A DNA stretch of 63,830 nt, filler included, from Lenisia limosa (GCA_001655205.1; 8 parts of 8 records of this genome joined end to end with filler, not necessarily neighbours in it), one strand, 5' to 3'. Numbered from the whole stretch's first letter, positions 31,828 through 62,241 are shown. Numbers and translations are program-made. Notes: generated by a model not told the origin, from the letters alone.

Positions 31828-32649
31828 TGCTTCGACACTAAACCCGAATTTTTATAAACAGTTTGAAATAATAACCAAATGAAAAATTTCACACAAATTC
31901 CTGAAATTTGGCACTCCGGGCCGGGCGCCCGGGCAATTATTCTTCAAAAATCAGGACTAAATCTTGCTACTGTTGTCATTTTGCGATGTTCTTAGATTTG
32001 GAATTAAGTTTGCGGAAGTTTCATAACTTTTGCGATATTTTTTGATTTGGGACCTAAATGTTCCAGAAAAATTTGATACTTGCCTAATTGAGAAAACAGG
32101 GTTGAAAAGGTAAAAAAAAACGGTCATTTCATCATACGGCCCTTTAAAACTTCTCATGACTTCAGAAACATAAAGCCAGACTCCCAAAACCCTTAAAATG
32201 GTCGAATCTGATTTTAAAATAGCGTTAGTAGGCTCGAGATATAAATCCTGACATTTTGATTGAAATTACCAAAAATCTCTAATGTTCCACAGTTGCTAAT
32301 TTCAGTCAAAATGTCAGGCATATTATCGTGTTTCTGTTTTTGAAGGCATTCAAAGTTTTAAAGGGCCATATGATGAGAAATGACCGTTTTTTTCTACTTT
32401 TCAACCCTGTTTTCCCAATTAGGCAAGTATCGAACCTGGAACATTTAGGTCCCTAATCAAAAGTTATGAAACTTCCGCAAACTTAATTCCAAATCTAAGA
32501 ACATCGCAAAATGACAACAGTAGCAAGATTTTGAAGATAATTTGTGTGAAATTTTACATTTGGTTATTATTTCATATTTCCAATGGTTTTTAATTGTAAG
32601 AGGGCAGTTTATAAAAAATCGGGTCAAATCGGGTTTAGTGTCGGAAGCA
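31828..32649. mobile_element. Foldback-type non-autonomous element, ~820 bp, with ~300-bp inverted arms
   Basis: TA|TGCTTCGACACTAAACCCG...CGGGTTTAGTGTCGGAAGCA|TA. 31961-32170 is the reverse complement of ~32325-32532 apart from short indels. An inner hairpin CCTGACATTTTGA...TCAAAATGTCAGG lies at ~32247-32320. Confidence 0.85.
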
Positions 32650-33276: not shown

Positions 33277-33929
33277 GGCCCCGTGCTTGCTGCTAGAGTA
33301 TGGGTGTATTAACTTTTAGTATCATATTCCTAGACAGAATAAGTCTTATTTTTTATTTCTCATTGCTATATATCTTAAAAGAATATTTGGGTATAATGTT
33401 TTACTTTAGAATTTAGTGTAAAACAGTAACAACACAAAATATTAACAAAGTGTGTATGCATTGATAAGAATGACCAGTAAATCTTATTTTCCTAGGCCGG
33501 ACTCAACATTTTGGATATTGGCATTCCTCTTCTGTCCATGCACTCCATCAGAGAAATGCTCTGCGCTAAGGACCTTGAGGACTCTGTTACCCTTTACAAG
33601 GTGGAGGGAGGCAGTTTGGTGTTTTGTTTCATGGAATTTATCATCCACATACCCTTTCTCCTGGAGTGCAGATGCGANNNNNNNNNNNNNNNNNNNNNNN
33701 NNNNNNNNNNNNNNNNNNNNNNNNNNNNNNNNNNNNNNNNNNNNNNNNNNNNNNNNNNNNNNNNNNNNNNNNNNNNNNNNNNNNNNNNNNNNNNNNNNNN
33801 NNNNTTTCGTAATTTACTCCCCACAGTATTGAAATTGCAATTGTCATTCCCCTTTTTTTTGCTTACCCCCTGTAGGCATTCTTTGAAAAGTGTACACTCA
33901 CCAGCCGTGTTGAGATTGACGAGTGGTAG
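33277..33929 (+). CDS. DNPEP: Aspartyl aminopeptidase (peptidase M18), last three exons
   Basis: GPVLAAR|AGLNILDIGIPLLSMHSIREMLCAKDLEDSVTLYK|AFFEKCTLTSRVEIDEW* contains the M18 C-terminal D.G.P.LSMHS.RE motif. Exons are 33277-33297, 33496-33600 and 33876-33929. Confidence 0.85.
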
Positions 33930-34645
33930 TTTACTGACCTTGTTGAAATGGGAGGTAGTTTACTGACCTTGTTGAATTGGGAGGTAGTTTACTTAATGAA
34001 TTGGGGGGGATTATATAATATTTTACTTGAGGTGTACTGTCTCTAAACAACGTCTTCACTTCTGAAAAGCCCTTTTCAATAAAGGAGAACCGNNNNNNNN
34101 NNNNNNNNNNNNNNNNNNNNNNNNNNNNNNNNNNNNNNNNCCACGATTTATTTCCACTTCCCATCACCATCACACAAACGGGGACACCAAAAACTAGAGT
34201 CAATCTGTAGCTCTTCTATCAAGTTTCTTCTCCCAAGTTGCAATTAAAGGGGATGAACTAGAAACTAGCCTTACGGGGGAAATACTTATAACCCTAGGGC
34301 TGAAACACTCTGAACGTGGCTGAAGGTAGGTGTGGCGATGTGGCGTAGGTAAGTGGCGAGAAGACAAGTAGAGTTGCTGAGCTGTTGCTGAGGAGAAGTG
34401 TGGTTTGGGAGAAGTTGTTTGGCAGCTTTCTCAAGGACGAAGATCTAGAAGATCTATTCTGTGTTGCTCCTTTGTTCCGGTCATATTTTTTTTCTTGGTA
34501 TTATGCAGATCAAGGTTTCAACTTTAAGTTGCTGTAAAATTTGGTGTAATATTTTTGAGAAACTCTAAAACCACTCTGGGTTGGGGAAAGATTCATCGCA
34601 ACCCTTAGCTAAAAGGAAGGTAGAGATAAAGCAAAAAGGAGCTGT

Positions 34646-37600
34646 TTACATCTCGTCATCGGAGTCGACAGGCTCGTCATCGCTGGAAATGTCGGAGAGG
34701 TCGTTGATGGCGATCTTCTCCTACTAGTGTTAACATGGGAACATTTACGAAACAAAAAAAACTCCTACTAGTGTTAACATGGGAACATTTACGAAACAAA
34801 AAAAAAGCCTGAACTCTATGTTGGCAGCATCCAATCACCAGCGTACCTCAAGGGTCTTCTTGCGGGTCTCAATCTCCTTCTCGTTGTCGATTTTCTTCTG
34901 AGCCGAGGAGGCCTTGAAGGCGTCGAGCTTCTCGTTGATGACCTCGATCATCTTGGTGGCTTCGGCCTGGGGGGTAAAATTGGAAAATTTATGAAACAAA
35001 AAAAATCCAAATCAACTCTGTTGGCTGACAACACACAAGGGTTGATAACAACAAAATAAACAAAGCCCAGACCAGTCGCTTCGGGGGATGAGATGCAGGG
35101 GTGGGCGGAGTAAACCGAATGAAATTTGGACGAAGAATAGTGGAGTGAAGGTACTAATTACGAACCGAATGATATGAGGGAAAGAAGAGAGCACAACAAT
35201 CACAACGCCAACCTTGGTGGGAGGGGGGTTGAGGCCGAGAGTGCCGAAGTCGTGGACGGCAGTCACGGAGTGCGAGAAGGTGGCGTCCTTCTTGCTGACA
35301 TTCTGTGGGGTGAAACCATGGTCAATTCATGGAAAAGACTTCCCGTAAACCCCCCCCCCCCCCAAGTANNNNNNNNNNNNNNNNNNNNNNNNNNNNNNNN
35401 NNNNNNNNNNNNNNNNNNNNNNNNNNNNNNNNNNNNNNNNNNNNNNNNNNNNNNNNNNNNNNNNNNNNNNNNNNNNNNNNNNNNNNNNNNNNNNNNNNNN
35501 NGTTGGCTGACAACACACAAGTATCGTCATGCCAGCTGGAATTTAATAAGGATTATCCTTCGCAAGTGCCTTTTGACGCAAGGTTCGTTAGAATTTTATT
35601 GTTTTAATTGCGAAAAGACAAATACTAGCTGATAAACATTTGATTTACGATAGCATATGAGCACAGACTTTGAAAACAAGAGCATACGATACGCCAAAGT
35701 GACAATTAACACTAGTTTACCAACTTTTGGTTGACGACATTATATACAATATAAAAGCCAATGTTAGCACTAGTTAATCTGAAAAGTTATGAGCTAGCAG
35801 GCCCTTTGCTTCTATCTGATGGTAGTATAATGCAATGGTATAGTACTACATAGCAGACCTTGCCGGAGGCGGAGACGGTGGCGTTCTTGACGTTAGTGCT
35901 GCGGTCCAAGGTAGTCTCGGTGGGAGCGGGGGCTGGCAATGTAAGGGAGAGCGGGGTTGAACAATAAAAGAAAAATATTTTAAAACTAAGAAAGAGATGA
36001 AAAATGTTTTGTACGGGAGAGGGGGGTAATATTGATTCTGATCCTGCCGGCAGGATTATAGCAATTAAGGCACCCCCCCCCCCCGGGCACCNNNNNNNNN
36101 NNNNNNNNNNNNNNNNNNNNNNNNNNNNNNNNNNNNNNNNNNNNNNNNNNNNNNNNNNNNNNNNNNNNNNNNNNNNNNNNNNNNNNNNNNNNNNNNNNNN
36201 NNNNNNNNNNNNNNNNNNNNNNNNNNNNNNNNNNNNNNNNNNNNNNNNNNNNNNNNNNNNNNNNNNNNNNNNNNNNNNNNNNNNNNNNNNNNNNNNNNNN
36301 NNNNNNNNNNNNNNNNCTACTTCTCGAGACGCTTGCGGTGGCGGGCGATGTTGTTGGCCTTGTGCATGTCGGCGTTTTGGAGCTTGCGGTAGGCCTTGAT
36401 GTAGGTCTGGAAGCGGTCGGTCTCCTCCTTGTTGACCTTCTTGGTCTCGCGGAGCTCGTTGTAGAGGGCGTTGAGGTCGTTGCGGACAGAGTCGCGTTCG
36501 GCAAAGAGCGCCTTGATCTGGGGAGGGCGGCGATGAGGGGGGCAAGGGAGAAACAAAATCAGAAAAAATAAAAAGGATGGTGAAAAATGCTCTTGTTAAT
36601 CGGTGAATGGTGACAGAAACGTCAACTCCAGCCTACTCTGGCCTGCTCGGGCTTGGACTTCTTGAAGGTGTTGTCGAGAACCTCAGCGAGCTTCTTCTCC
36701 TCACCCTTAGAGTTGTCCATCTCGGCGTTCTTCTCCTGCATCTTGGCGAAAGCGACGTCCATAGCAGCCTTGAGGGACTTGATCGACTCTTCGAGCTTGG
36801 CGGCGGCGGCAGCGTTGCCTTCGGAGGCCTTGAGGGTCTTGATCTCTCCAAGGATCTGGCGCTCCTCGAGACGGTTGCCGGAGGAGTTCTCAAGCTTCTT
36901 CTCAAGGGCGCTGAGGGGGTTAGGTTGGGAGGATGGGTCAAATGCGGTTGGTCCGTTAGAGGCGAGATCATCCTTGGTGACAGATTGTGATGGAGAAGGG
37001 AAGCCGAGAATGGCCGCTGACGGAAAGAATTACCAGCAAATAGAGAAAAACCGCATGTACAAAACGATAGAAAGGAGAAAAGGGACCCTCATACGCGACA
37101 CGCTTCCTCACTTCCTCGACGGTGATGTTGTTGTTCTTCTTGGCGCGGTTCTTCTTGCTGAGTTCGATCTAATCCAGTTAGTACGGCTAATAAAAGTAGT
37201 TCCCAAATTCTTCGCAGAGAAGGAGGAAAAAATAACAAAACCTGGTTTATGCTGCAAACAAGCCACATACCTTCTGGTTACGCTCGGCCTTGAGGGTGTT
37301 GAGCTCATTACGGAAAACATCACGTTCCTCGCGGAGCTTGGCAAACTTCTCACGGTATTCGGTGATAGTAACACGGGTCTTCTCCTACAAAAAAGTAAAT
37401 AAAGGTCTCAACAAAGAGTAAATCCTACAATTCCCTTCTTGCGTTCCTCGTTCTCGTCCTTCTTGTCATGGAACTCGTTGATTTGGGTACGGAGAGAGTC
37501 CTGAAAGGATAAAGCTGTCAACAAAAAACAAAAAAACTCACTCTCTTGAGAGTAAGCTCCTTGATTTTGTCATTGAGACCATCAATCTTGGCAGTGAAGG

Positions 37601-51600: not shown

Positions 51601-52424
51601 TAGCTATATCCATCATATATATCATATAGAGATGAGAAGAGGAAGAAAAAACAAGTAAGTGTCTGGCCTAAGCTGGTCCACACCACGCTTAAGGAGATAT
51701 TAGATTTTAGTACAACATTCACCCCCACACTACAGTCCACAATGAAATAATTATTATGGTAAAATGTCAATACTAGACAAAAATGCTAATAGATATGAAC
51801 GTTACCCACGGTTTGATTTCAGCATTCTCCTCGTTTTTTTCGGGCGTTTCTTCAAGGGAATTGTTGTCATCCGTGCTTTGAGCATTTTGGGACATTAGCT
51901 GTGACGCTGGTACAAATGAGAGTAATTTGTATTCTGGTATCCCTATGTATTTACTTGATCTCAGATTTTTAATGTAATATATGATAGTATGAGCTATGAT
52001 TTCTTGCTGTGACAAAGGGGGGAAAAAGAGAGAGGGGGAAGGTAGGTAAATGAGCATATCCATATCATTAAATTAGACCTCCACCCCCCCCAATTTCTTT
52101 CATCATTATTGACCAATTCCAATTATCATTAACAGCCCCCCTCCCCTTCTAGGGTCTTTGGTGCTTCTTACCTCCTTGATTGAATTGGGAGTCCTGGGAA
52201 GTAAGAGGAAAACGAAGATGATAACAAAACAAAACAACAAATAATCAAAATAAAATAATGTTTGTTTTGAAAAATCCACAATTTAGATGATATTTCAAGT
52301 ATTTCCACTGTATCTATCCATGATTTATGTATATATGTATCATCAACACCAATGTTACCCCCGTATAAACAATACCCCCACATAACCCATAAACGGAGTA
52401 AAATTAGTTACAACCCCCACATAC

Positions 52425-52546
52425 CCCCTTATAAACGGAGTGAAACTGGCTATAGCCCAGGTTCTGCTCTTCGTTAAGGTAAACATCCGGGTCCAACGTC
52501 ATATTCAACGAATCGTCTTGAGTCATCGACAGCGTGGCTCCATGAA
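52425..52546 (-). CDS. Internal exon of an uncharacterised gene
   Basis: C-tract acceptor CCCCCTCCTCGCAG, GTATGT donor, and open frame HGATLSMTQDDSLNMTLDPDVYLNEEQNLGYSQFHSVYKG. Confidence 0.45.
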
Positions 52547-54059
52547 CTGCGAGGAGGGGGGAACGGAGATTAAGAAAATATTAATAATAATAATAATAAA
52601 ATAAATAATAATAATTATCAACTTTTTTGGCTGACAAAACACGAGGGTCAAAACAGACAAAACACAGGGTGAAAATGAAAAATATACAAAAAAAATAAAA
52701 AAGGTGGGGATGGAAAACCTCGACAGGAGGGGAAAACCTCGACAGCTCTCAAGAAAATGAATGATGATATTTTATGTTAAAAAGGATTTGTTTCTTTCCT
52801 ACAATGGCGTCGGACAAGTTTATTTCCAAAAAAATATGTCAAAACAAAGCAATAACATGGTTTTAAATATCGTATAATTGCGTAAGAAGAAGAAAAATAA
52901 TGGGCAAATATGAGGAAATGGGCCAAACAGGGGACTGATTTTTTTTTAAAAGTTTGCTGTTCAGATCTCAAAGTTTTGTGATCAGCGATCTTTACCCACT
53001 TATTTTTTTTACCAAGCAAAACACTTAATAGTTAATCAAAATATAGTATTTAGTTCATTTATGTCAATTCTTCGGCGCTTTGACAATTTGAAGGACCAGG
53101 TGAGGGTTTTGTCTTTGGCCCTTGTTAGAACTCCTCCAAGAGTGCGCCTCCATCTGTCTTTATCCAGTTTTTTTGATAATATCTGCACTGTAAAAAGAGT
53201 TTCAATTCGGTAAAATCGCCCAATCTTGCTTATCTTGATGTCATCTTTAGGAACCCGAATTTTCCCAATCATTGAAATCTTACTCATTTTCAAGGTACAA
53301 AATGACTTGGAGCCACTGAGGCTTGCAGTCAGAAGCTGTCCTGACTTTGGGTCACTTGCCATTGAGGAAAAATATCTACTTCGTACTCCCTTGCGGAGGA
53401 CAAAGGTGTCTTAGAATACCTTTCCGAGTCCACCGCTGCATGTCTCCTCAACGAAAGGAGGCAAATTGTTGTATTCACTGATGAAAAAAGTCTTTTTTTT
53501 TTGTGTGATTTTTTATTAATTGATTAGGTGAAACGCAACCAGGTCTCAAAATATAAAAATACAACTATCAAGCGAAGGCCTGGACGCACAACCTATCTCC
53601 ATCCAGATATCTCTGACCACTTTCTAAGACTTGTTTTGGAGCGTATTGTCCGTNNNNNNNNNNNNNNNNNNNNNNNNNNNNNNNNNNNNNNNNNNNNNNN
53701 NNNNNNNNNNNNNNNNNNNNNNNNNNNNNNNNNNNNNNNNNNNNNNNNNNNNNNNNNNNNNNNNNNNNNNNNNNNNNNNNNNNNNNNNNNNNNNNNNNNN
53801 NNNNNNNNNNNNNNNNNNNNNNNNNNNNNNNNNNNNNTAATAAATAACATTCCATTATTTTCATATATTTTTTGTATTATCGTGTACCATTTAAGATGGT
53901 TATAACCTCTTAGTTCTTGTTTCTCCATATTACTCCCATGGTTATTGATGTTCATTGACAGTAAAAGAGTAGCATACTACCACCACTATCAATCATACAC
54001 TCAATTATTGCATCCCTAATGCTTATTGTCACTTTCTCTTACTCTCACAGACACCCAAT

Positions 54060-54670
54060 ATGCTGGACTCTGCCAGGGAGAAAGCATTGACTGAAGGACG
54101 TCTGATGCAACATGCACTGGTCCCTTTCAAGTCATCCTCCACTCGTCCCTCCGCACCAACCTTGTCAAGAAGGCCCCTGCTGATGTTTCCAACGCCGTCC
54201 ACAACCGCTGCGTCGCCATCGCCGCATGCCTCGAGGCCTTCCATACTGCCACTTCTCCATGGAAAATCAAAAGTGCTTTCGCTGCTGGGGGTCTTGTTGT
54301 CACCATTGACACCTCTCAGTTGCTTTGCTGTCCACCATCCTGGGTCACTTCATTTTTCAAACGCCCCTGCCACCTGCCAGAACAGCCCTATATTCCTGCA
54401 TCCTCAACACCCCCGAGCTCATTTCCTTGATTGAGGTTGCCAAGGAAAATGAGGACGCTGCCGTTACCAAGGACTCTTGGGTAGAAGTTGCCAAGTACCG
54501 TGACCAACTTACTGCTGCTGAAGTCGAACTTTTCCTTGCTGACCGTGACACCCTCCCTTGGGCCAAGTACNNNNNNNNNNACCATTGAGCATTATATGGC
54601 CAAGCTTCTTCAAGAAGTGGAGGCCGCTGAGGCTGAGAGGCGTCGTCAACTCGGTAGTGGTTGGAGTTAA
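54060..54670 (+). pseudogene. Coding-like segment that needs two -1 frame changes; interrupted by a 10-N gap
   Basis: Strong C/G-ending codon bias follows frame 54060, then frame 54131 (VILHSSLRTNLVKKAPADVSNAVHNRC...), then frame 54319 (VALLSTILGHF...LPWAKY), then TIEHYMAKLLQEVEAAEAERRRQL after the gap. The frame path is inferred from codon bias only. Confidence 0.45.
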
Positions 54671-55075
54671 CTTTTTGCTGTTGTTTAGCTCCACTCTAAT
54701 GGTATAGACGTTCAAGGTGAAAATCGCCAAAAGCAAAAGAAGAAACCTCATGGTTTGTTGTATTTTCCTATTATTTCCCGCTTGATGCTTTCCTGCATAA
54801 CCTGTTTGGTCTATTCTTACACGCCTAGCTAACAAGAGCCCACAGGATTCACCCAGTTGCTGTCGATAAGCCTCGGCGAGGTATGTATTATTATTCTTGT
54901 TGAGATTTAACCTTTTACTTTTCCGTATCACATGTTAATTAATAGCACAATTTTCCTGTCATATTCCGCGTGTTTTCTTTGAAAATTCTCACTTCTTTTG
55001 GAAAAGAAGTCTCGTTAGTATTTGTCCTTTTTTGTTGTATTTGTTATTGAGTTTTATCTGTACATCAATATCAAG

Positions 55076-56830
55076 GTCGCTGCTGATGTGTTTTCCCGTC
55101 ATATGTCAGGCACAACCTTCCTTGAGTTCATCATTGGAGCTGAGGATGATGGTCATGCTACAAAGTATTCTATGCCTTCCAACGTGTCCAAGGAGGCCCT
55201 TGTCAATCATGTTACTAACACTGAGCCAATTCCCAGCCACGTTCCTTCCATGAGCACCATGCTTGGTGATGAAACGTCCAACAAGGTTATCAAATATGTC
55301 CTCAAGGATGGTGACAACAGTGTTGAGTTCAGATTCAACACCATTATGGAGTTCCCATTTGGTCTCGGACAAACCGCTTCATTGTTCTCAAAGACTATTG
55401 AGGCCAGAACCAAAACCAGTGATGGTATGTTCGATACCCAAAGCAAAGACAGAGTATTCATTTTCTCTCCCAAGTTTGTCGATTCTCTCATGAATGCTGT
55501 TACGAAGAATAACTTCACTGGACTTCTTGAATACCTCCCCAACAGGTATGAGCAATATTACAACCGTGAATTCCGCGAGGTTATGGAGGTGAAAAAGAAG
55601 AAGACCATTCCCACTTTGGATCCTGAGGAACATCTTGATGAGGCCTTTATCGAGCAGAATATTAGACACAACGTTTTCCAAATGTCCAACGCCATTGGTG
55701 GAGAGGCTGATGTGCTCAAGCACTGTTCTGTCAGACTCTTTTTCCATCTCATTCATAACCAAAAGGGGTGGAGCAACATTGTTCACAACATCATGCTGTC
55801 CATGGGAGCCTCTACTGATACCCAAAAGACCTTCAGTTTTGGTGAGTCTGGAAATGTCCATGGATTCATTAACATGAACAGAGATCTTACATCTCTCCAT
55901 ACCGATTTCTCAAATCTTTACCACCCAGATCTCAATTGCAAGGTTAGACATCTCTACAAGTCCTATCTTGCCAAAACCATGACTGAACCTTCCGCTGATG
56001 GAACCACAATTGCCGTAGCACCTCGTGGAAGAAGAGGTAGGAGCAAGAAGAGTGCCCCCAGCAAGAGACAACAGGATTATGTCACAGCCAGAGATCAGTA
56101 CCTCACCGACAGCGACCCTGGTGGAGCTATGGATCACCTGGTCAATAACATTTCCAAGATGAGTGTCAGCGAGATCATCGAAAATGTTGAGGTCATTGAT
56201 ACTGACAAATATGCCAACGACGATCACAAGGAGATGTGGGAACAATATATCAGTGTCACTCAGGCCGAGATGGAGCAGAATATTGACATCATCAATCGTC
56301 ATCTGGAAGAAGAGGGTGTTGATAGGAACCAGCTCATTGACCCCAATAGCTATTACAGATACATTCTTGATCCCTATTCACCTCAACGTGTTCTCCGCAC
56401 TCTCAAACTTTGCGATGATCATATCCCAGAGGCCCCTAGCGCTAAACCCACTGGTCAATCTAGTGCTGTTGATAACGCCATCTCGCACGTCTACACTTCT
56501 GTTATGAATGGAAAGTCTGACACTCCCATTGGTGGTAACGATGGAATCCATCTCAAGAATCAAGTGATTGGAACACATGTCCAACAGGCCGCTGACAAGC
56601 GTGAGATGGAGAAGATGAATGATGTCTATATTCTTTCCACCCTTCCTAATTCTGGCAATGCCTATTACACCACCATCAGTATTCTGTTGAAGATGGGTAA
56701 GAGTCCATTGGTTGATGAGGTTGATAAATTGGTATGTAAATGTGATGGTTCTAACCGTTATCCCATGTACAATTCAGAATGGTCCAGAGATGTTCTCAAC
56801 CTTCTCATCAGTGCTATCAGGAGACTCTAG
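55076..56830 (+). CDS. Large uninterrupted ORF of unknown function (575 aa from ATG 55103; may be the terminal exon of a spliced gene entering at 55076)
   Basis: 1.75-kb open frame with biased codon use, a basic NLS-like stretch PRGRRGRSKKSAPSKR and a mostly helical/acidic C-half. No family recognised. Confidence 0.9.
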   Translation, partial: VAADVFSRHMSGTTFLEFIIGAEDDGHATKYSMPSNVSKEALVNHVTNTEPIPSHVPSMSTMLGDETSNKVIKYVLKDGDNSVEFRFNTIMEFPFGLGQTASLFSKTIEARTKTSDGMFDTQSKDRVFIFSPKFVDSLMNAVTKNNFTGLLEYLPNRYEQYYNREFREVMEVKKKKTIPTLDPEEHLDEAFIEQNIRHNVFQMSNAIGGEADVLKHCSVRLFFHLIHNQKGWSNIVHNIMLSMGASTDTQKTFSFGESGNVHGFINMNRDLTSLHTDFSNLYHPDLNCKVRHLYKSYLAKTMTEPSADGTTIAVAPRGRRGRSKKSAPSKRQQDYVTARDQYLTDSDPGGAMDHLVNNISKMSVSEIIENVEVIDTDKYANDDHKEMWEQYISVTQAEMEQNIDIINRHLEEEGVDRNQLIDPNSYYRYILDPYSPQRVLRTLKLCDDHIPEAPSAKPTGQSSAVDNAISHVYTSVMNGKSDTPIGGNDGIHLKNQVIGTHVQQAADKREMEKMNDVYILSTLPNSGNAYYTTISILLKMGKSPLVDEVDKLVCKCDGSNRYPMYNSEWSRDVLNLLISAIRRL

Positions 56831-56837
56831 AGTGTTT

Positions 56838-58259
56838 TTAAAACTTTACATCTACTATAGTGGTTGATTTATAATAGGCAAAGATTGAGTGTGGAATATC
56901 AACATCCGTTTGAAAAATAATCCATAGCACTCGACATTTGTCCTGCAACATCTGGTACAGGGATAATCGTTCAAAGGAACACTCTCCTCGGATAATTACA
57001 TTGAATTCCGCTTGAATCTTATGCAAATGTCTAGAGTCCCCTTTGTAGATTACACCACCCTCCCAATCCTTTGTATGGACCACTTTTACACTCTTTTCAG
57101 GCAGTGGTAGAGCGTTGGCAGAGAGTATAGAGACCACTTGGTCATTGGATTTCTGTGCTTGTATATGGCCAATGAATGAGACATAGGGGGAATAGGGAAT
57201 AGACAACTTCCATTCGTCTCTAGTAATAAATCCAACCTCAATTTGACTCAATCTACCGGTTCTTGTTAATGCTGGATCCAACTGTGAAGGGTGCTTATTA
57301 GTTGTCAGAATAATGATCAGATTTGGCTGTATGGGTACTTGACCAATGCTAGAGAGAATGGTCGATCGTTGGTTGGCAACATACTGCTCACCTTCATCCA
57401 GGAGCATTGTGACAATTGGAGATTTCTCTTGATAGACCCTAAAAAGGTGTTGTGCAACGTCTATTGCACTAGTGTCAGTCATCATTCTAGTGCCTCTGGT
57501 TATTTGTCTAGCAAGGTGTGTTTTACCTGTTCCAGGAGGTCCCCAAATACATATTCCAGGTGAGCTCTGGAGAGCGTTGTGCAAGGCCTTTTGAATACTT
57601 TTTCTTGCATCTATAGAGACCATCTGGATAAATATTTCCCTTTGATCACATCGAATTTCATTACTCTGGGGCATTGGAATATACGACGGTAACATTGATC
57701 TACGGACCTTGTTTAGGGTGTCTAATTCGCTCTCAGCAGTGATGATGTGGAATGAAAATACATCTAGCGATAACAATGATTTCAGTACCTTTTGATCACA
57801 GTTCTCATTGAATTTTGCAAAGAATAAACGCTCAATATCAAATGGTGAGAGGCTGTGTAGCTCAACCACCTTGAAGTGTGAAAACGACGGTTCCCTCTCT
57901 TTGGAAATGACTATAACCGTTGGCATTTTGCATATTGAATCTCTCATTCCGGAAATAATTGAGCTCATTGTGGAAGAGTCTCCTAGGTCATTGAACCCGT
58001 TGCAAATCATTACAGAACCCTCATTATTACACTCCTCAATCAGCTCATTCAGCTTCTTCTGGGACTCTCCTATGTATTTGTCTAGTAGACTTGGGAGGAA
58101 GATCTTTTTGTGAGTTCTATTAACCAGGGATAGAATATCCGATGCAAAACCGACTCCATCCTCTGTGTGAGGGGTAACTATTTGTAGCTGAAGATTGTTT
58201 TGAAAATTGCAGATTTCGGACTCATGACCTATAAGATATTTGCCACCAAAACCTTCCAT
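56838..58259 (-). CDS. Highly divergent CDC48-like AAA+ ATPase (473 aa from MEGFGG), intronless
   Basis: Second module has Walker A GPPGTGKT (57519-57542), Walker B MLLDEGE, sensor-1 LTTN and the Arg finger LDPALTRTGRL. The first module keeps the pore-loop LLDKYIGESQKKLNELIEE but has no Walker A/B. Confidence 0.88.
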   Translation of the reverse strand: MEGFGGKYLIGHESEICNFQNNLQLQIVTPHTEDGVGFASDILSLVNRTHKKIFLPSLLDKYIGESQKKLNELIEECNNEGSVMICNGFNDLGDSSTMSSIISGMRDSICKMPTVIVISKEREPSFSHFKVVELHSLSPFDIERLFFAKFNENCDQKVLKSLLSLDVFSFHIITAESELDTLNKVRRSMLPSYIPMPQSNEIRCDQREIFIQMVSIDARKSIQKALHNALQSSPGICIWGPPGTGKTHLARQITRGTRMMTDTSAIDVAQHLFRVYQEKSPIVTMLLDEGEQYVANQRSTILSSIGQVPIQPNLIIILTTNKHPSQLDPALTRTGRLSQIEVGFITRDEWKLSIPYSPYVSFIGHIQAQKSNDQVVSILSANALPLPEKSVKVVHTKDWEGGVIYKGDSRHLHKIQAEFNVIIRGECSFERLSLYQMLQDKCRVLWIIFQTDVDIPHSIFAYYKSTTIVDVKF

Positions 58260-58296
58260 CTGTAATATAATATAGACGAATATTGTATAGTTCCTG

Positions 58297-58869
58297 ATGA
58301 ATTTTATGGATGTTATAGACACTCCTAGATATATCCAGCGTAATGATTCCAAATTATTATTCAAGACTTTCCATAGTGATGAGGTCACGGATGAACAATC
58401 CTCGGACACCTTTATATACATCAAAAGAGATGTTAAATCAATGTTCATGGCTGTGATAAGGACTAGTGATTTTCAACCGTTACTGGCATTCAAAACCAAC
58501 ACCCCTAGCATTATTTCCTTCGACCTTTTGATGCCAATTATCAATAAAGATTTGACCATAAACAAATATCGATTTATCTCATACAATTCTGAGGGTACAA
58601 CTTCCACTAGGTCTCATATACTGACCTTCGACAATCCAAACTATCATCTGAGTGTCCCTGACGATTACTTTGACGATGGATATATCCTAATTCTCGACCC
58701 TGATATTAGTGCTAGGATATTGGATGACGCACACATCACAGACCCTTGGAACAAGATCACCCTGGGTTATAATCAAAGACGAATCGCCTATAATCAGAGC
58801 CTTAGACCATTGTGTGAAGTCGATATACATTCCACATCCTACCGTATTCAAAAGGAATATGTTCTCTAA
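58297..58869 (+). CDS. Intronless ORFan, 187-190 aa
   Basis: ATG at 58297 or 58306 to TAA at 58867-58869, divergent from the AAA gene. No family recognised. Confidence 0.75.
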   Translation: MNFMDVIDTPRYIQRNDSKLLFKTFHSDEVTDEQSSDTFIYIKRDVKSMFMAVIRTSDFQPLLAFKTNTPSIISFDLLMPIINKDLTINKYRFISYNSEGTTSTRSHILTFDNPNYHLSVPDDYFDDGYILILDPDISARILDDAHITDPWNKITLGYNQRRIAYNQSLRPLCEVDIHSTSYRIQKEYVL

Positions 58870-58999
58870 GCTAAAGATGATAGTGGTTTCCCCAAAGAAT
58901 AATGGAGAGACGACAAAGGTTGTGTCACAGCGTGTCGCTATCAATGAGGGATTGAAGAATTTGGATATTACACAATGTGGATATTTCTTTGCGGATTGA
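58859..58999 (+). CDS. Possible 46-aa micro-ORF (MFSKLKMIVVSPKN...)
   Basis: Fills the gap between two ORFs exactly and overlaps the upstream stop by 11 nt, as in compact genomes. Too short to verify. Confidence 0.4.
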   Translation: MFSKLKMIVVSPKNNGETTKVVSQRVAINEGLKNLDITQCGYFFAD

Positions 59000-59036
59000 T
59001 TCTTAATAATCTGTTATTTAAAACTTGGTAGTTCCA

Positions 59037-59804
59037 ATGTCCAACTTTTTACCCATTAGCAAATCCAAACATCTCATGAACAATTATCTGAAGCAGAATC
59101 GTCAGCTGTACAAGATCACTAACAAGGACTACACCGACACCCCTGGGGACTTAGATATTATATTCTCCTGGAGGGTCCAAAACAATAACTATGCAACTGT
59201 CCATGTGGTCAATGCCAGCACTTTCAAACCACTTCTGTGTTGTAATATAACTATTGAGGAAAATGCTAGTACACACCCTCCAAGTGTAATTATTAACAGA
59301 GTATACCATAAGAAGCACCATTATGCCAAGATATTGAATCCTCCTGACAATTGCCATTGCACACTATTCGGTTCTGAAATAAAAGTACCCATATCGGAAA
59401 CTAGAATGGGAATTTGCTCTTATAAGATTATTGATCAGAGCACTGTTCGATCTTTGTTGGAGAAGTCTCCCAAGGTCCCTGAGACAGTTGATTCTAGTAC
59501 CACCTTCTCTATGTATTTGTACACAGGGTCTGGTGAGAGGCTCTACGGCCTAATATTGAATGCCTTTGTCAACAGACCTCTGCGACAAATAATTGGACCT
59601 CGTTCTAAGTCAATATTCTGTGGTTTCGCATATGTATACATGGATCCTGTGGACAGATTTCAGTTTGGAGAGAAGGTGAATCCATTTGCCAATCCTATAT
59701 TACGCAACAATCTTCTGACCAATGTATTGAGCTATCAGATATTTGAAAGTCGTGAAGTTTCTATCCAAAATCAAAAGGCATCTTTGAAGAGAGAAAGGTC
59801 TTGA
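59037..59804 (+). CDS. Intronless ORFan, 255 aa
   Basis: ATG at 59037 (MSNFLPISKSKHL...) to TGA at 59802-59804. Beta-rich appearance. No family recognised. Confidence 0.8.
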   Translation: MSNFLPISKSKHLMNNYLKQNRQLYKITNKDYTDTPGDLDIIFSWRVQNNNYATVHVVNASTFKPLLCCNITIEENASTHPPSVIINRVYHKKHHYAKILNPPDNCHCTLFGSEIKVPISETRMGICSYKIIDQSTVRSLLEKSPKVPETVDSSTTFSMYLYTGSGERLYGLILNAFVNRPLRQIIGPRSKSIFCGFAYVYMDPVDRFQFGEKVNPFANPILRNNLLTNVLSYQIFESREVSIQNQKASLKRERS

Positions 59805-59833
59805 CTAGTCCCTGAGGGGTTTTTAAAACACAA

Positions 59834-60289
59834 CTAATATTTGATGAAGTAGTACTCTGAACAGTGATTATGGACCATATAGTAACCGTCTACACCATCC
59901 TTGTAATTATACATCAGATCGTGGGTAACATCTTTCAGATATTCGTGAGGAGGCTTGTATCCATTCTTTTCATGAAATATTATTCTCTCAACAATGATGA
60001 GATCTAGAGGTTTCGCATAATAATCATACAGCTCCATTATATGATCTCCTACCAGTTTCCCTTCCTCTGATTCAAAATCTAACAAGGGCTGTCTGGACCA
60101 ATCCAACACAATATCTAGAACCGGATTGGGCTTTGGTTTAGTACCCTCTACAAACTTATCAGTGGAAATATGCAAGAATGAGGCGATGAAATCTTTGGTG
60201 GTATAATAGTCTCCGGAATATAGCTCGAGATAGATAAAGGGTTTCCAAATATTGTTGTGATAGGCCTTTCGTCTAAAATCTTTATACAT
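59834..60289 (-). CDS. Intronless ORFan, 151 aa, Tyr-rich
   Basis: ATG at 60289 to TAG at 59834, convergent with the 255-aa ORF across a 29-bp gap. Confidence 0.75.
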   Translation of the reverse strand: MYKDFRRKAYHNNIWKPFIYLELYSGDYYTTKDFIASFLHISTDKFVEGTKPKPNPVLDIVLDWSRQPLLDFESEEGKLVGDHIMELYDYYAKPLDLIIVERIIFHEKNGYKPPHEYLKDVTHDLMYNYKDGVDGYYMVHNHCSEYYFIKY

Positions 60290-61142
60290 ATATATTTTGA
60301 AAAGAGTTTTGATTTACATTTTTGGCCTGAAAGTTTTGTTGGATATTGTGTATGCCTATTGATGACAATTTAATTAGCAATTACCCCCACTCTTTTTCAT
60401 TTTCCCCAAAAAAAATTATCGAGGTTTCCCTTCCCCCTGTCGAGGTTTTCCACCCCTGTCTGGGTTTTCCACCCCCACTATATACATATCATATATATAT
60501 ATCTATATATAATAGTATGTATTTTGTGTTTGACACTCCTCCCTCAATTATACATACATCTTTCCTACCCCCCTTTTACTCCGCATAATTTAACCTTATT
60601 TACTCCCACCCTCTTGTCTAACGCCCTTTGAGTTATTACTAGATGTAAAACATGAATTATCCTAGTATCACTAGCTCCCAATTAGATTCTTATCCACTAT
60701 AATCATTCTGACAGGAAAGAAGTTGCCCCCCCACACACACACACCCACACCATCANNNNNNNNNNCAAAATCATCTCCAATTTCAAAACCCATTTTATTT
60801 TACCCCCCAATATCTCACATTGTCCATGTGACAGCGCCTCATCATCTTCATCAGGTAGGTCGAAGATAACGTCCTTGGGAGGAAGGCAGTCTAAGGAATT
60901 GCGCCTCCAGAGGATTGTCGAGTTGTCGTTGAAGATACAAATTTGGTTGGCTACAAGGCTTTGAGTGAATGTGATAATAATAAACACAAAAGATAACAAA
61001 AAAAAAAAAAAACTACAAAAATTGTAATTTAAAAAAGAAATGTTCCATTAAAATCCCCCTTAACATCCCCCCGAATACCAGTTGACGACACCAGTGGCAT
61101 GATCTCCCCGCAACAAACAGGGGTATCTTCGGACGTTTCTGC

Positions 61143-61400
61143 CTGTAGGGGGGGAGTAAAACTGGAAAATTTATGAAACAAAAAGCCCAAAATCAACCCT
61201 GTTCTGACAACACGCGAGGGTTGATAACAACACAATAAACAAAGCCCAGGCCAGTCGTTTCAGCAGCACCGCACCTCATCACTGGTGAAACGAAAGAAAT
61301 TTCGATGAAGAATATTCGCGTAAAGGTACTCATCATAACTGAATAATCTGAAACTCCAAAAAAAAAAAAATAATAATAATAAAAACAATAAACACTAGCC
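61143..61400 (-). repeat. Intron-resident repeat (modules A+B) ending at an acceptor
   Basis: Sense strand GGAGTTTCAGATTATTCAGTT...ATCGAAATTTCTTTCGTTTCAC...GAAACGACTGGCCTGGGCTTTGTTTATTG...TTTCATAAATTTTCCAGTTTTACTCCCCCCCTACAG|GC. Confidence 0.8.
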
Positions 61401-62241
61401 TAGTCAAAAACCAGGAGACAAAAACAAACAAAGCCNNNNNNNNNNNNNNNNNNNNNNNNNNNNNNNNNNNNNNNNNNNNNNNNNNNNNNNNNNNNNNNNN
61501 NNNNNNNNNNNNNNNNNNNNNNNNNNNNNNNNNNNNNNGGGGGCAAGGTATTTCACCCCCCCCCCACGGTCTGAACAGGAAGGGCGGTAGCTTGTCTATC
61601 TCCGTTTCGCCACGACAATACCCCGGGAACATGCAGGGGAATAAGGGGGACGGTCGAAATGGCTGGCTGGTTGGCTGCTGGCACTCTGGAGGACGGTGTG
61701 ATAAGTTTGGGACTCAACAGGGAAAGGATTATGAAGGGGGTGATTTGGTGATGGCATGTGTATATGTACTATATGTCAGAGGGGAATAATGGGCTCTTCT
61801 AAAAAGGGGGTGGCAGCGTCTTTAATTAAAAAACTAAAAAGTGAGAAAAGTGGTTTTTTGATGAGCAAAATTCAAAAAGGATTGTTTGCAACTACAGACG
61901 TTTTTTAAAGAGCCGCCCCATTTTTAGAACAGCTGAATAGTGGGGGTGCGTTGGTGACTGAAAATAAATAAAACACCAGGTGTAAAGGAATGCTAGCCCT
62001 CTTCCCACAATGATCTTGAACTTGGTTTTGGGAGGTTGTTAACAGGGATTGAGGGGGGCGGAGTGGGCTTGAGTGCCGATTTTTGCAGCACAGGGAGGTT
62101 ACTAGAAGCGTCTACTGGAAATCAGAACCTCCTGCAAAAAAAAAAACACTGTGTATTTTACTTCCCTTATCCAGGTCTGCGATAATACTTGTTTCAACTC
62201 ATTTCTGATTATAAATCTTACTTCTACCCCCACCCTCATAC

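Follow-up and report, generated by a model that had tools for sequence, protein, structure and literature searches.

How does a compact, intron-free block of open reading frames on both strands come to lie in an intron-rich eukaryotic genome, and what was its source? The block was originally placed at positions 55076 to 60289 of the window, the whole stretch of DNA analysed here (63,830 nucleotides, filler included, from Lenisia limosa, GCA_001655205.1, eight parts joined end to end). Recomputation reproduced the strands, order and gaps first claimed (7, 37, -11, 37 and 29 bp, left to right), and the block does lie in the longest of the 48 N-free stretches of the window (54581-60755). Its genes and main spacer are:

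55103-56830 from the first ATG (frame open 55064..56830), plus strand: ORF1, 575 aa, orphan
58259-56838, minus strand: ORF2, 473 aa from the ATG at 58259, predicted tandem (type II) Cdc48-like AAA+ ATPase
58260..58296, no strand: ORF2/ORF3 spacer, 37 bp, AT-rich (27% GC), predicted bidirectional promoter
58297-58869, plus strand: ORF3, 190 aa, orphan
58859-58999, plus strand: micro-ORF, 46 aa, overlapping ORF3 by 11 nt, putative gene
59037-59804, plus strand: ORF5, 255 aa, orphan
60289-59834, minus strand: ORF6, 151 aa, orphan

The composition of this DNA differs from that of the host. It has no homopolymer run of eight or more letters, against 71 in 51.9 kb of host DNA, and its longest stop-free frames reach 603 and 544 codons, against 262 elsewhere in the N-free DNA. 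Its 4-mer profile correlates with that of the host at 0.66, compared with 0.86-0.97 for nine of nine equal-size host tiles, which are themselves part of the host profile. The island has no match in the rest of the window, and no Rfam match falls within 52000-61500. A coding share of 97%, the absence of a Shine-Dalgarno match upstream of all six ATGs and the 37 bp that separate the divergent ATGs of ORF2 and ORF3 suggest the style of a eukaryotic virus. All three occurrences of TTTAAAAC in the insert lie at gene ends, which make up 2.2% of its length, and the micro-ORF is followed by it like the other genes concerned; both occurrences of TAGTTCC stand 1-2 nt ahead of an ATG, in the ORF2/ORF3 spacer and in the spacer before ORF5. 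These common motifs, picked after the fact, suggest one source for the insert genes.

The island is real, an insertion, and single-copy. Contigs from a DNA run (X1, probably the source sample of the window itself), through which the other copies of a surrounding element were seen, delimit a 5,219-bp insert by comparison of filled and empty forms, with the 5-bp duplication TACAT on both sides:

52704..52745, plus strand: left terminal inverted repeat (42 bp; contains a repeated motif), 37/42 identical to the right arm
52746..55060, plus strand: left body of the element, a decayed, intron-bearing gene for a predicted pogo/Fot1-like transposase
55061..55065, no strand: left TACAT copy, from the empty-site joint read against the window junctions
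55066..60284, no strand: the insert itself (5,219 bp), single-copy and lacking terminal repeats
60285..60289, no strand: right TACAT copy, from comparison of filled and empty forms
60437..60478, minus strand: right terminal inverted repeat, 42 bp

The empty-site joint, seen in contigs of other element copies, runs from 55052 to 60285 with 12 letters between, and the single TACAT of the empty form is matched by two in the filled one (chance probability for a 5-mer ~0.002-0.009). A single X1 contig spans 54967-60320 with no differences, bridging both junctions and reaching 99 and 36 letters beyond the insert ends. Of the checks proposed at the outset, k-mer composition was compared above, and contig depth is 33.5 in the island, 27.3 and 34.4 in the unique flanks and 106.7 at the empty-site joint; the search for an empty site was answered by paralogous copies of the surrounding element, the empty form being a paralogue because further indels separate it from the window copy. 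No direct or inverted terminal repeat was found within the end 150 bp of the insert, which has no recognisable means of moving itself.

The flanks, first described as plain host intron and low-complexity DNA, are instead the left and right ends of an element (52704-60478) that has terminal inverted repeats of 42 bp and occurs in multiple copies, with joints straight across the island in other copies; the left border likewise lies at 55066 and not at the splice acceptor proposed at 55076. Read depth climbs from 27 to more than 140 at the left terminal repeat, element contigs reach ~4-6 times the depth of the unique flanks, and left-body contigs (depth ~130-188) align with substitutions and frameshifting indels. 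The empty element measures ~2.5 kb and exists in several copies, some of them transcribed and spliced, with introns at 53453-53527 and near 54654-54707 in their RNA contigs; the window copy carries frameshifts and has lost splice sites. A search for a TA, TAA or TAAA target duplication found TA after the right terminal repeat and AG before the left one. The family is likely pogo/Fot1-like, on the basis of what we take to be HTH-like and C-terminal motifs; none of eight transposase fragments matched Pfam and none gave a significant PDB match, the gene being in pieces and partly in N gaps. An apparent catalytic motif, VFTDE (53366-53524), was dropped, as it lies inside an intron spliced out in RNA.

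Transcript evidence joins the island to host exons on its right. An RNA contig (X2; 238 nt, depth 2, no mismatches) enters the island at 60147, where 48 nt of it lie, beside a cryptic splice acceptor inside ORF6 at 60148; both segments that it skips are GT-AG on the minus strand, and the host-island joint, seen once and at low depth, carries a stop codon.

60819..61136, minus strand: host exons 61136-61079 and 60950-60819, joined to the island by splicing in this RNA contig
52449..52546, minus strand: predicted continuation of that host gene past the element (its native next exon, from sequence and not from RNA; 3' end approximate)

The predicted native exon, the best of seven candidates, has 14 pyrimidines among 16 positions at its acceptor and is in frame with the upstream exons. 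We infer that the window copy of the element sits in an intron of a minus-strand host gene.

On balance, we lean towards an accident of break repair in which part of a eukaryotic DNA virus, itself unsequenced, was recently captured as a single-copy insertion in a decayed element copy. A staggered double-strand break in the AT-rich 3' region of that copy would have been mended by end joining with a stretch of foreign DNA that was in the nucleus; TACAT would thereby be duplicated, and ORF1 (probably ORF6 too) would lose its 5' end. On this view the donor would be a DNA virus, densely packed with genes that have short promoters of their own and a common gene-end signal; ORF2 would serve it as a Cdc48-like unfoldase, and the codon-biased ORF1 would be made in quantity and may be structural. 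The insert acts, as seen once at low depth, as an exon trap through which the host transcript gains its stop codon at the splice joint. The kind of event is known; the donor is new to the collections searched. The capture is likely recent, for decay has reached the surrounding copy but left the ORFs intact. Over 1,131 bp of flank, at least 30 substitutions and 9 indel events separate the copies, and ~16 ORF breaks would be expected if half of these changes fell on the window copy (P of two or fewer 1.4e-5; for a quarter of them, 0.013).

The original prediction of an integrated fragment of a virus or plasmid-like element thus stands as to integrated, foreign, gene-dense DNA, on the empty site, the TACAT duplication, the spanning contig and the spliced RNA, while its viral or plasmid origin can only be inferred, no hallmark gene having been found by which to classify the donor. 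Pfam, NCBIfam, PHROGs and PDB identified no capsid, packaging ATPase, polymerase, primase or integrase among the island ORFs. A double jelly-roll major capsid protein gave no profile or PDB match, the structure models being poor, and integrase, tyrosine recombinase, pPolB and primase-helicase were absent from the Pfam, NCBIfam and PHROGs matches, although very remote forms could escape; nor were the Nucleocytoviricota hallmarks (MCP, PolB, A32, VLTF3, D5) found, one of which a 5-kb piece need not carry, and the likeness to that group is a generic AAA one.

By its sequence, ORF2 belongs to the tandem Cdc48-type AAA+ ATPases, from which it has diverged strongly. It matches PF00004 (AAA) at E 5.5e-14, against ~0.015 for RNA_helicase and Parvo_NS1, which speaks against an HUH Rep with SF3 helicase; and as the sole P-loop protein it is a classical AAA protein with an arginine-finger motif, not an FtsK/A32 packaging ATPase. 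Three ORF2 segments fit a profile of 34 homologues as a remnant first domain lacking the catalytic residues and an intact second domain with Walker A/B, sensor 1 and arginine finger, both modelled at pLDDT 58-80; a C-terminal part of ~130 aa is unmatched. Viral and metagenome contigs gave no match to ORF2 and phages only weak AAA matches. Its best PDB matches are Cdc48/p97; by sequence it comes closest to cellular proteins of Cdc48/Afg2-like type, which align to 15-29% of its length with 22-33% identity. In structure comparison the cellular match (5.5e-12) beats the viral one (1.7e-8), with a model itself built on cellular homologues. Tandem AAA proteins of Orpheovirus, a marseillevirus and hytrosaviruses resemble ORF2 in their ~500 aa and classical AAA fold, but at 12-17% identity and TM 0.21-0.25, and ORF2 differs in a first ring without catalytic residues.

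These cellular matches favour, among the alternatives, a cellular donor captured in the same way, whether a eukaryotic parasite with a compact genome, an endosymbiont or a prokaryote, and reduced parasites also have short intergenic spacers. We nevertheless consider such a donor unlikely. ORF2 is far too diverged to work as a cellular Cdc48, and its first Walker A remnant, at residues 33-39, leaves no room for the Cdc48/p97 N-domain; no Shine-Dalgarno match and no credible match in prokaryote contigs or plasmids was seen; and four of the five adjacent long ORFs have no family or solved-structure match, which would be unexpected in DNA of cellular origin. The large protein searches covered ORF1, ORF2 and ORF5; ORF1 and ORF5 recovered only themselves there, and ORF5 had no usable Atlas match. 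ORF3 and ORF6, searched in narrower collections, gave no credible match (ORF3 in Pfam, NCBIfam, PDB and viral contigs; ORF6 in Pfam, viral contigs and metagenome contigs). Five of seven sequences looked up in protein clusters are singletons, two extended forms being absent, and the ORFs searched yielded no orthologues. A Desulfobacula contig match (L001; 28 columns, 50%) is attributed to chance, since it was built around a seed pattern and no other ORF matches there. Paralogy of ORF3 and ORF5, raised by a common motif, was ruled out (BLASTP E 0.57, shuffle p 0.16-0.35), as was ORF6 as an SF3/Rep remnant, which has no Pfam match and an SF3-like Atlas neighbour at TM 0.32, under the bar.

The left end of ORF1 bears on whether the insert is a fragment or a complete unit. 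The 13 codons upstream of its ATG score 4.9 as coding, against 6.7±2.5 in frame, a value reached by none of 86 off-frame windows, while real spacers score -10 to -21; the test was trained on ORF1 itself, and two upstream flank windows score only -1.4 and -1.8. The N-terminus of ORF1 has thus likely been cut by the left junction, so the insert would be a fragment and not a self-integrating unit; ORF6, whose ATG sits in the right TACAT copy, may be truncated as well. Against this, the insert might be whole, a circle of 5,224 bp (a plasmid or a small virus) that entered through one crossover at TACAT. A crossover duplicates its core, and the joined ends would set the ATGs of ORF6 and ORF1 head to head, 37 bp apart as in ORF2/ORF3, in a closed layout of two divergent and two convergent gene pairs. 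A circle is quite doubtful, however. With 46% GC, no TAGTTCC and a coding-like reading in the ORF1 frame, the spacer formed by joining the ends agrees with the true one at just 12 of 37 positions. Neither a Rep nor a polymerase or recombinase is recognised, and the contig that covers the island continues without interruption across the two junctions at the depth of a single copy, with no end-to-start joint among the three joints listed. ORF1 is otherwise strongly codon-biased (ATA in 0 of 36 Ile codons, TTA/CTA in 0 of 41 Leu codons), sharply unlike the other island ORFs (p ~1e-5), a contrast that could point to a mixed origin of the insert. Its basic stretch starts at residue 307, plasmids gave no match to it, and its single-sequence model (pLDDT 33) is unusable, so that the fold search on it was uninformative, also as regards the HK97-fold MCP, triplex, portal or terminase of a Mirusviricota fragment.

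DNA transposons often lose internal DNA between short direct repeats, and the filled 7.8-kb form could accordingly be an ancestral composite transposon from which the empty copies arose by deletion between the TACAT repeats. Terminal repeats still alike at 37 of 42 positions would fit such an origin, as would the existence of transposon-virus fusions, of which Teratorn is described in parts of one account (PMC10175614). It is improbable nonetheless: RNA contigs over the transposase region match intact copies, ORF1 is cut at a junction upstream of which the DNA is T-rich and differs by non-triplet indels between element copies, the ORFs were spared the decay of their flanks, and depth indicates one filled copy only. 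By the partial account in PMC7386202, the empty form, at ~2.5 kb and with 42-bp terminal repeats (Fot type 40-60 bp), is like pogo/Fot-like transposons and falls within the pogo range of 1.2-5.2 kb, which the filled copy exceeds; the decayed fragments also differ from that family in their lack of a Pfam match.

Uptake of fast-evolving host genes or retrocopies by the transposon (Pack-type) finds some support in ORF1, whose codon preferences resemble those of two host exons tested, at small counts. It is nevertheless highly improbable: the 5.2 kb contain no intron although the host is rich in them, genes lie on both strands, the 4-mer profile is distinct, nothing matches in the rest of the window, and the single-copy depth gives no hint of a close parent locus. 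A false join to contaminant or symbiont DNA might be suspected in a gap-rich short-read assembly with both junctions in a repeat, and with X1 probably the source sample, but it is scarcely credible, and we see no sign of the chimeric join that would have undone the original prediction, because RNA splices unique host exons into ORF6 via GT-AG introns, a separately assembled contig bridges both junctions at the depth of the unique flanks, and the 5-bp duplication is present.

Returning to accidental capture of viral DNA, the insert can be set beside known systems. A 5-6-bp target duplication is typical of the integrase of Polinton-like viruses, Mavericks and virophages. These elements share with the insert intron-free compact genes in protist genomes, as described in part of PMC10120064, whereas the insert is much shorter, has no terminal repeats and breaks inside a gene, and capsid, packaging ATPase, pPolB, primase-helicase and integrase are not recognised in it. 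Endogenous giant-virus islands of Acanthamoeba, in the portions of PMC12210455 that describe them, are likewise incomplete sets of intron-poor orphans without mobility genes, tied to host mobile elements and possibly integrated by accident, but there hallmark genes name the donor and transposons colonise viral DNA, while here 5.2 kb of foreign DNA with exact breakpoints and no hallmark gene lies inside a transposon. Teratorn, a piggyBac-herpesvirus fusion, also holds viral-type genes within cut-and-paste transposon ends; part of its account (PMC10175614) gives it as 180 kb, a recognised herpesvirus and widespread in fish, in contrast to one filled copy with a broken transposase and partial cargo. 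No virus-like fragment nested in a pogo element was found in the literature searched. A bolder reading, which we hold to be rather unlikely, makes the insert the sole sequenced remnant of a lineage of protist DNA viruses that falls outside all described groups. Flanked by terminal repeats that can still be recognised, in a family with other, transcribed copies, it would form a 7.8-kb trans-mobilisable virus-cargo pogo element, a miniature, early Teratorn-like fusion that truncates a host transcript.

This capture event is unusually clean, since one can see the site both filled and empty, the junctions to the base, a relative date and an effect on the transcript, and it bears on whether viral pieces in protist genomes stem from accidental repair or from decayed proviruses, a choice called debatable in part of PMC12210455. 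The first reading of the locus had missed the nesting in a decayed DNA-transposon copy, the likely truncation of ORF1 and the tandem AAA+ nature of the P-loop protein. The island genes themselves offer bait for a donor without close relatives in the collections searched.

Re-examination of the sequence bore out the six open reading frames of the original prediction, with their strands and gaps of 7, 37, -11, 37 and 29 bp, in a block that it took to be an integrated fragment of an unrecognised virus or plasmid-like element. The features discussed here are:

52704-60478: multi-copy, transposon-like element with terminal inverted repeats (TIRs), surrounding the island
55066-60284: the island, or insert, a gene-dense single-copy block
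55103-56830, plus strand: ORF1
58259-56838, minus strand: ORF2
58297-58869, plus strand: ORF3
58859-58999, plus strand: micro-ORF
59037-59804, plus strand: ORF5
60289-59834, minus strand: ORF6

The coding share of the island is 97%, and homopolymer runs of at least 8, of which 51.9 kb of host DNA has 71, are absent from it. Its CpG observed/expected ratio is 0.49 (host DNA, 0.73), and its 4-mer profile correlates with that of the host at 0.66, compared with 0.86-0.97 for all nine host tiles. The island is not a chance feature.

Contigs were taken from a public DNA sequencing run (X1), which contains 99% of sampled island words and may be the source sample of the window, and from an RNA run (X2) belonging to the same study. 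The island contig has a flat X1 depth of 33.5, with unique DNA on its two sides at 27.3 and 34.4, while depth reaches ~105-190 at ~52700-55052 and 60285-60480; both island flanks are parts of one repeated element. The multi-copy region ends in a 42-bp inverted repeat (arms 52704-52745 and 60437-60478, identity 37/42) and measures ~2.5 kb without the island. RNA contigs that match intact element copies show splicing at 53453-53527 and close to 54654-54707; in the window's copy, a point change has removed one of these splice donors and a 19-bp gap the other, and frameshifts are present. The element also encodes peptide motifs that we take to be pogo/Fot-like. Together with its size and TIR length, these motifs suggest a pogo/Fot-like transposon, a placement that is provisional because none of eight element fragments matched in a Pfam search and the target duplication is ambiguous. 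Pogo/Fot-like transposons are outlined as 1.2-5.2 kb in size, with Fot TIRs of 40-60 bp (PMC7386202).

Several other repeats were observed. A dispersed, MITE-like family of ~65-100 bp, partly palindromic and in both orientations, occupies many sites across 6841-51003; its family D4 has 18 copies, with none inside the island among the matches listed. An extremely high-copy repeat at 61145-61425 (summed X1 contig depth ~143,000), present in RNA too, has related pieces (family D19) at 34969, 39600, 49208 and 52664. A perfect 74-bp inverted repeat (31959-32032 and 32458-32531, 425 bp between arms) is a candidate young MITE.

The element also exists without the island. In one X1 contig (depth 106.7), 55052 is connected to 60285 through 12 intervening letters; the shorter side of this contig measures 36 letters. 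The sequence TACAT occurs once in this empty form and twice in the filled form, at 55061-55065 and 60285-60289, and the insert is therefore 55066-60284 (5,219 bp). The empty-form contig carries several further indels nearby and would thus represent paralogous copies rather than an allele. A single X1 contig covers 54967-60320 with zero differences and crosses both junctions. There is good support for the insertion, the breakpoints and the setting, all of which we hold with high confidence.

Three stretches, 61136-61079, 60950-60819 and 60147-60100, are brought together in a 238-nt X2 contig of depth 2 that shows no mismatch; the two intervals that it skips are minus-strand introns with GT-AG borders, and a TAG stop is created at the splice joint into ORF6. 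Beyond the far TIR, a strong acceptor at 52546, the best of seven candidates, continues the same host frame. This splicing and the in-frame acceptor make it likely that the whole element lies inside a host intron, and the one low-depth contig indicates that some host transcripts are likely trapped by the insert. Nearby, a 10-N gap (60756-60765) may hide ~1.3 kb, because a 1,742-nt X1 contig matching 60340-60721 has 1,360 further letters without a window match. Elsewhere, TTAATTAATTAA, between N runs at ~5948, 48565 and 62286, is presumably a scaffolding linker and not genomic DNA, and a minus-strand peptide around SMHSIREM (33496-33966) is one that we take to resemble the C-terminus of M18 aspartyl aminopeptidase.

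In a coding-score model trained on ORF1, the stretch of 13 codons that leads from the left junction to the ORF1 ATG scores 4.9 in the frame of ORF1 (6.7 ± 2.5 within ORF1 in frame), a value reached by none of 86 off-frame windows; true spacers score -10 to -21. The ATG of ORF6 is the CAT of the right TACAT copy. Thus ORF1 and ORF6, the genes at both ends, are probably cut. In a count from listed alignment rows, at least 9 indel events and 30 substitutions separate the island flanks from intact element copies over 1,131 bp. Were half of this decay to have fallen on the window's copy, its rate would predict ~16 ORF breaks in the island, where at most two are possible (P for two or fewer, 1.4e-5; 0.013 for a quarter share). 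It is likely that most of the decay of the element copy preceded the capture.

The most probable mechanism begins with a staggered break in a dead transposon copy, within its AT-rich 3' part; repair would have drawn in foreign DNA that was in the nucleus and left a 5-bp duplication. Among structural alternatives, the main one is a circle of 5,224 bp that integrated at TACAT. Once its ends are joined, the ATGs of ORF6 and ORF1 are separated by 37 bp, the same distance as for ORF2 and ORF3, but the spacer at this joint is GC-richer and coding-like, unlike the true spacers. Size, the intact island ORFs and the RNA matching intact copies all speak against the reading of the filled element as ancestral, with empty copies arising by deletion. 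We consider it unlikely that an integrase acted on a complete element, given that no terminal repeats of the insert's own were found and its border breaks inside a gene.

All three occurrences of TTTAAAAC in the insert fall at gene ends, zones that make up 2.2% of it, and both occurrences of TAGTTCC lie just before the ATGs of ORF3 and ORF5, both motifs having been picked after inspection of the insert, which we read as derived from one coherent donor. None of the six island starts is preceded by a Shine-Dalgarno match, and the 37 bp between divergent ATGs would leave little room for bacterial promoters. ORF1 lacks ATA codons (0/36, against 34/101 in the other island ORFs) and TTA/CTA codons (0/41 against 29/92; p <1e-5 for each), a bias suggesting that it may be a highly expressed gene; a separate origin of ORF1 is possible.

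ORF2 matches PF00004 (E 5.5e-14) and Cdc48/p97 structures, and its 34 non-self matches are all distant cellular Cdc48-family proteins, whose profile reveals in ORF2 a first domain reduced to a remnant, a second domain that is intact, and no space for an N-domain. The homologue alignment was also used to build a model (pLDDT 49.5), which matches Rix7/Cdc48/p97 and viral AAA proteins, including ~500-aa proteins of Orpheovirus, a marseillevirus and hytrosaviruses; these predicted resemblances would be compatible with a large DNA virus and are not proof of one. The C-terminal residues 345-473 (56841-57230, minus strand), which have no match and alternate strands and helices, could form a third degenerate AAA-like module, in a region where the model is very poor. 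ORF1 matched only itself among 1.84 billion representatives and in a word search of 5.8 billion clusters, as did ORF5 in the latter; narrower searches with ORF3 and ORF6 gave results that were all negative or rejected. None of the island ORFs was identified as a capsid, packaging ATPase, polymerase or integrase. A basic, AT-hook/NLS-like stretch begins at residue 307 of ORF1 (listed with 55406-56053). Overall, we consider a viral donor fairly likely.

Literature surveyed at overview level yielded no matching published case. The island fails the structural tests outlined for Polinton-like viruses and virophages (PMC10120064), and mirusvirus signals are summarised as widespread across protist assemblies (PMC10827195). 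Teratorn is described in outline as a transposon-virus fusion able to become mobile (PMC10175614); in the present case the evidence points to a single filled copy. The viral islands of Acanthamoeba, as sketched in PMC12210455, are similarly fragmentary, intron-poor and orphan-rich, but the nesting is reversed here, with the foreign DNA inside the transposon.
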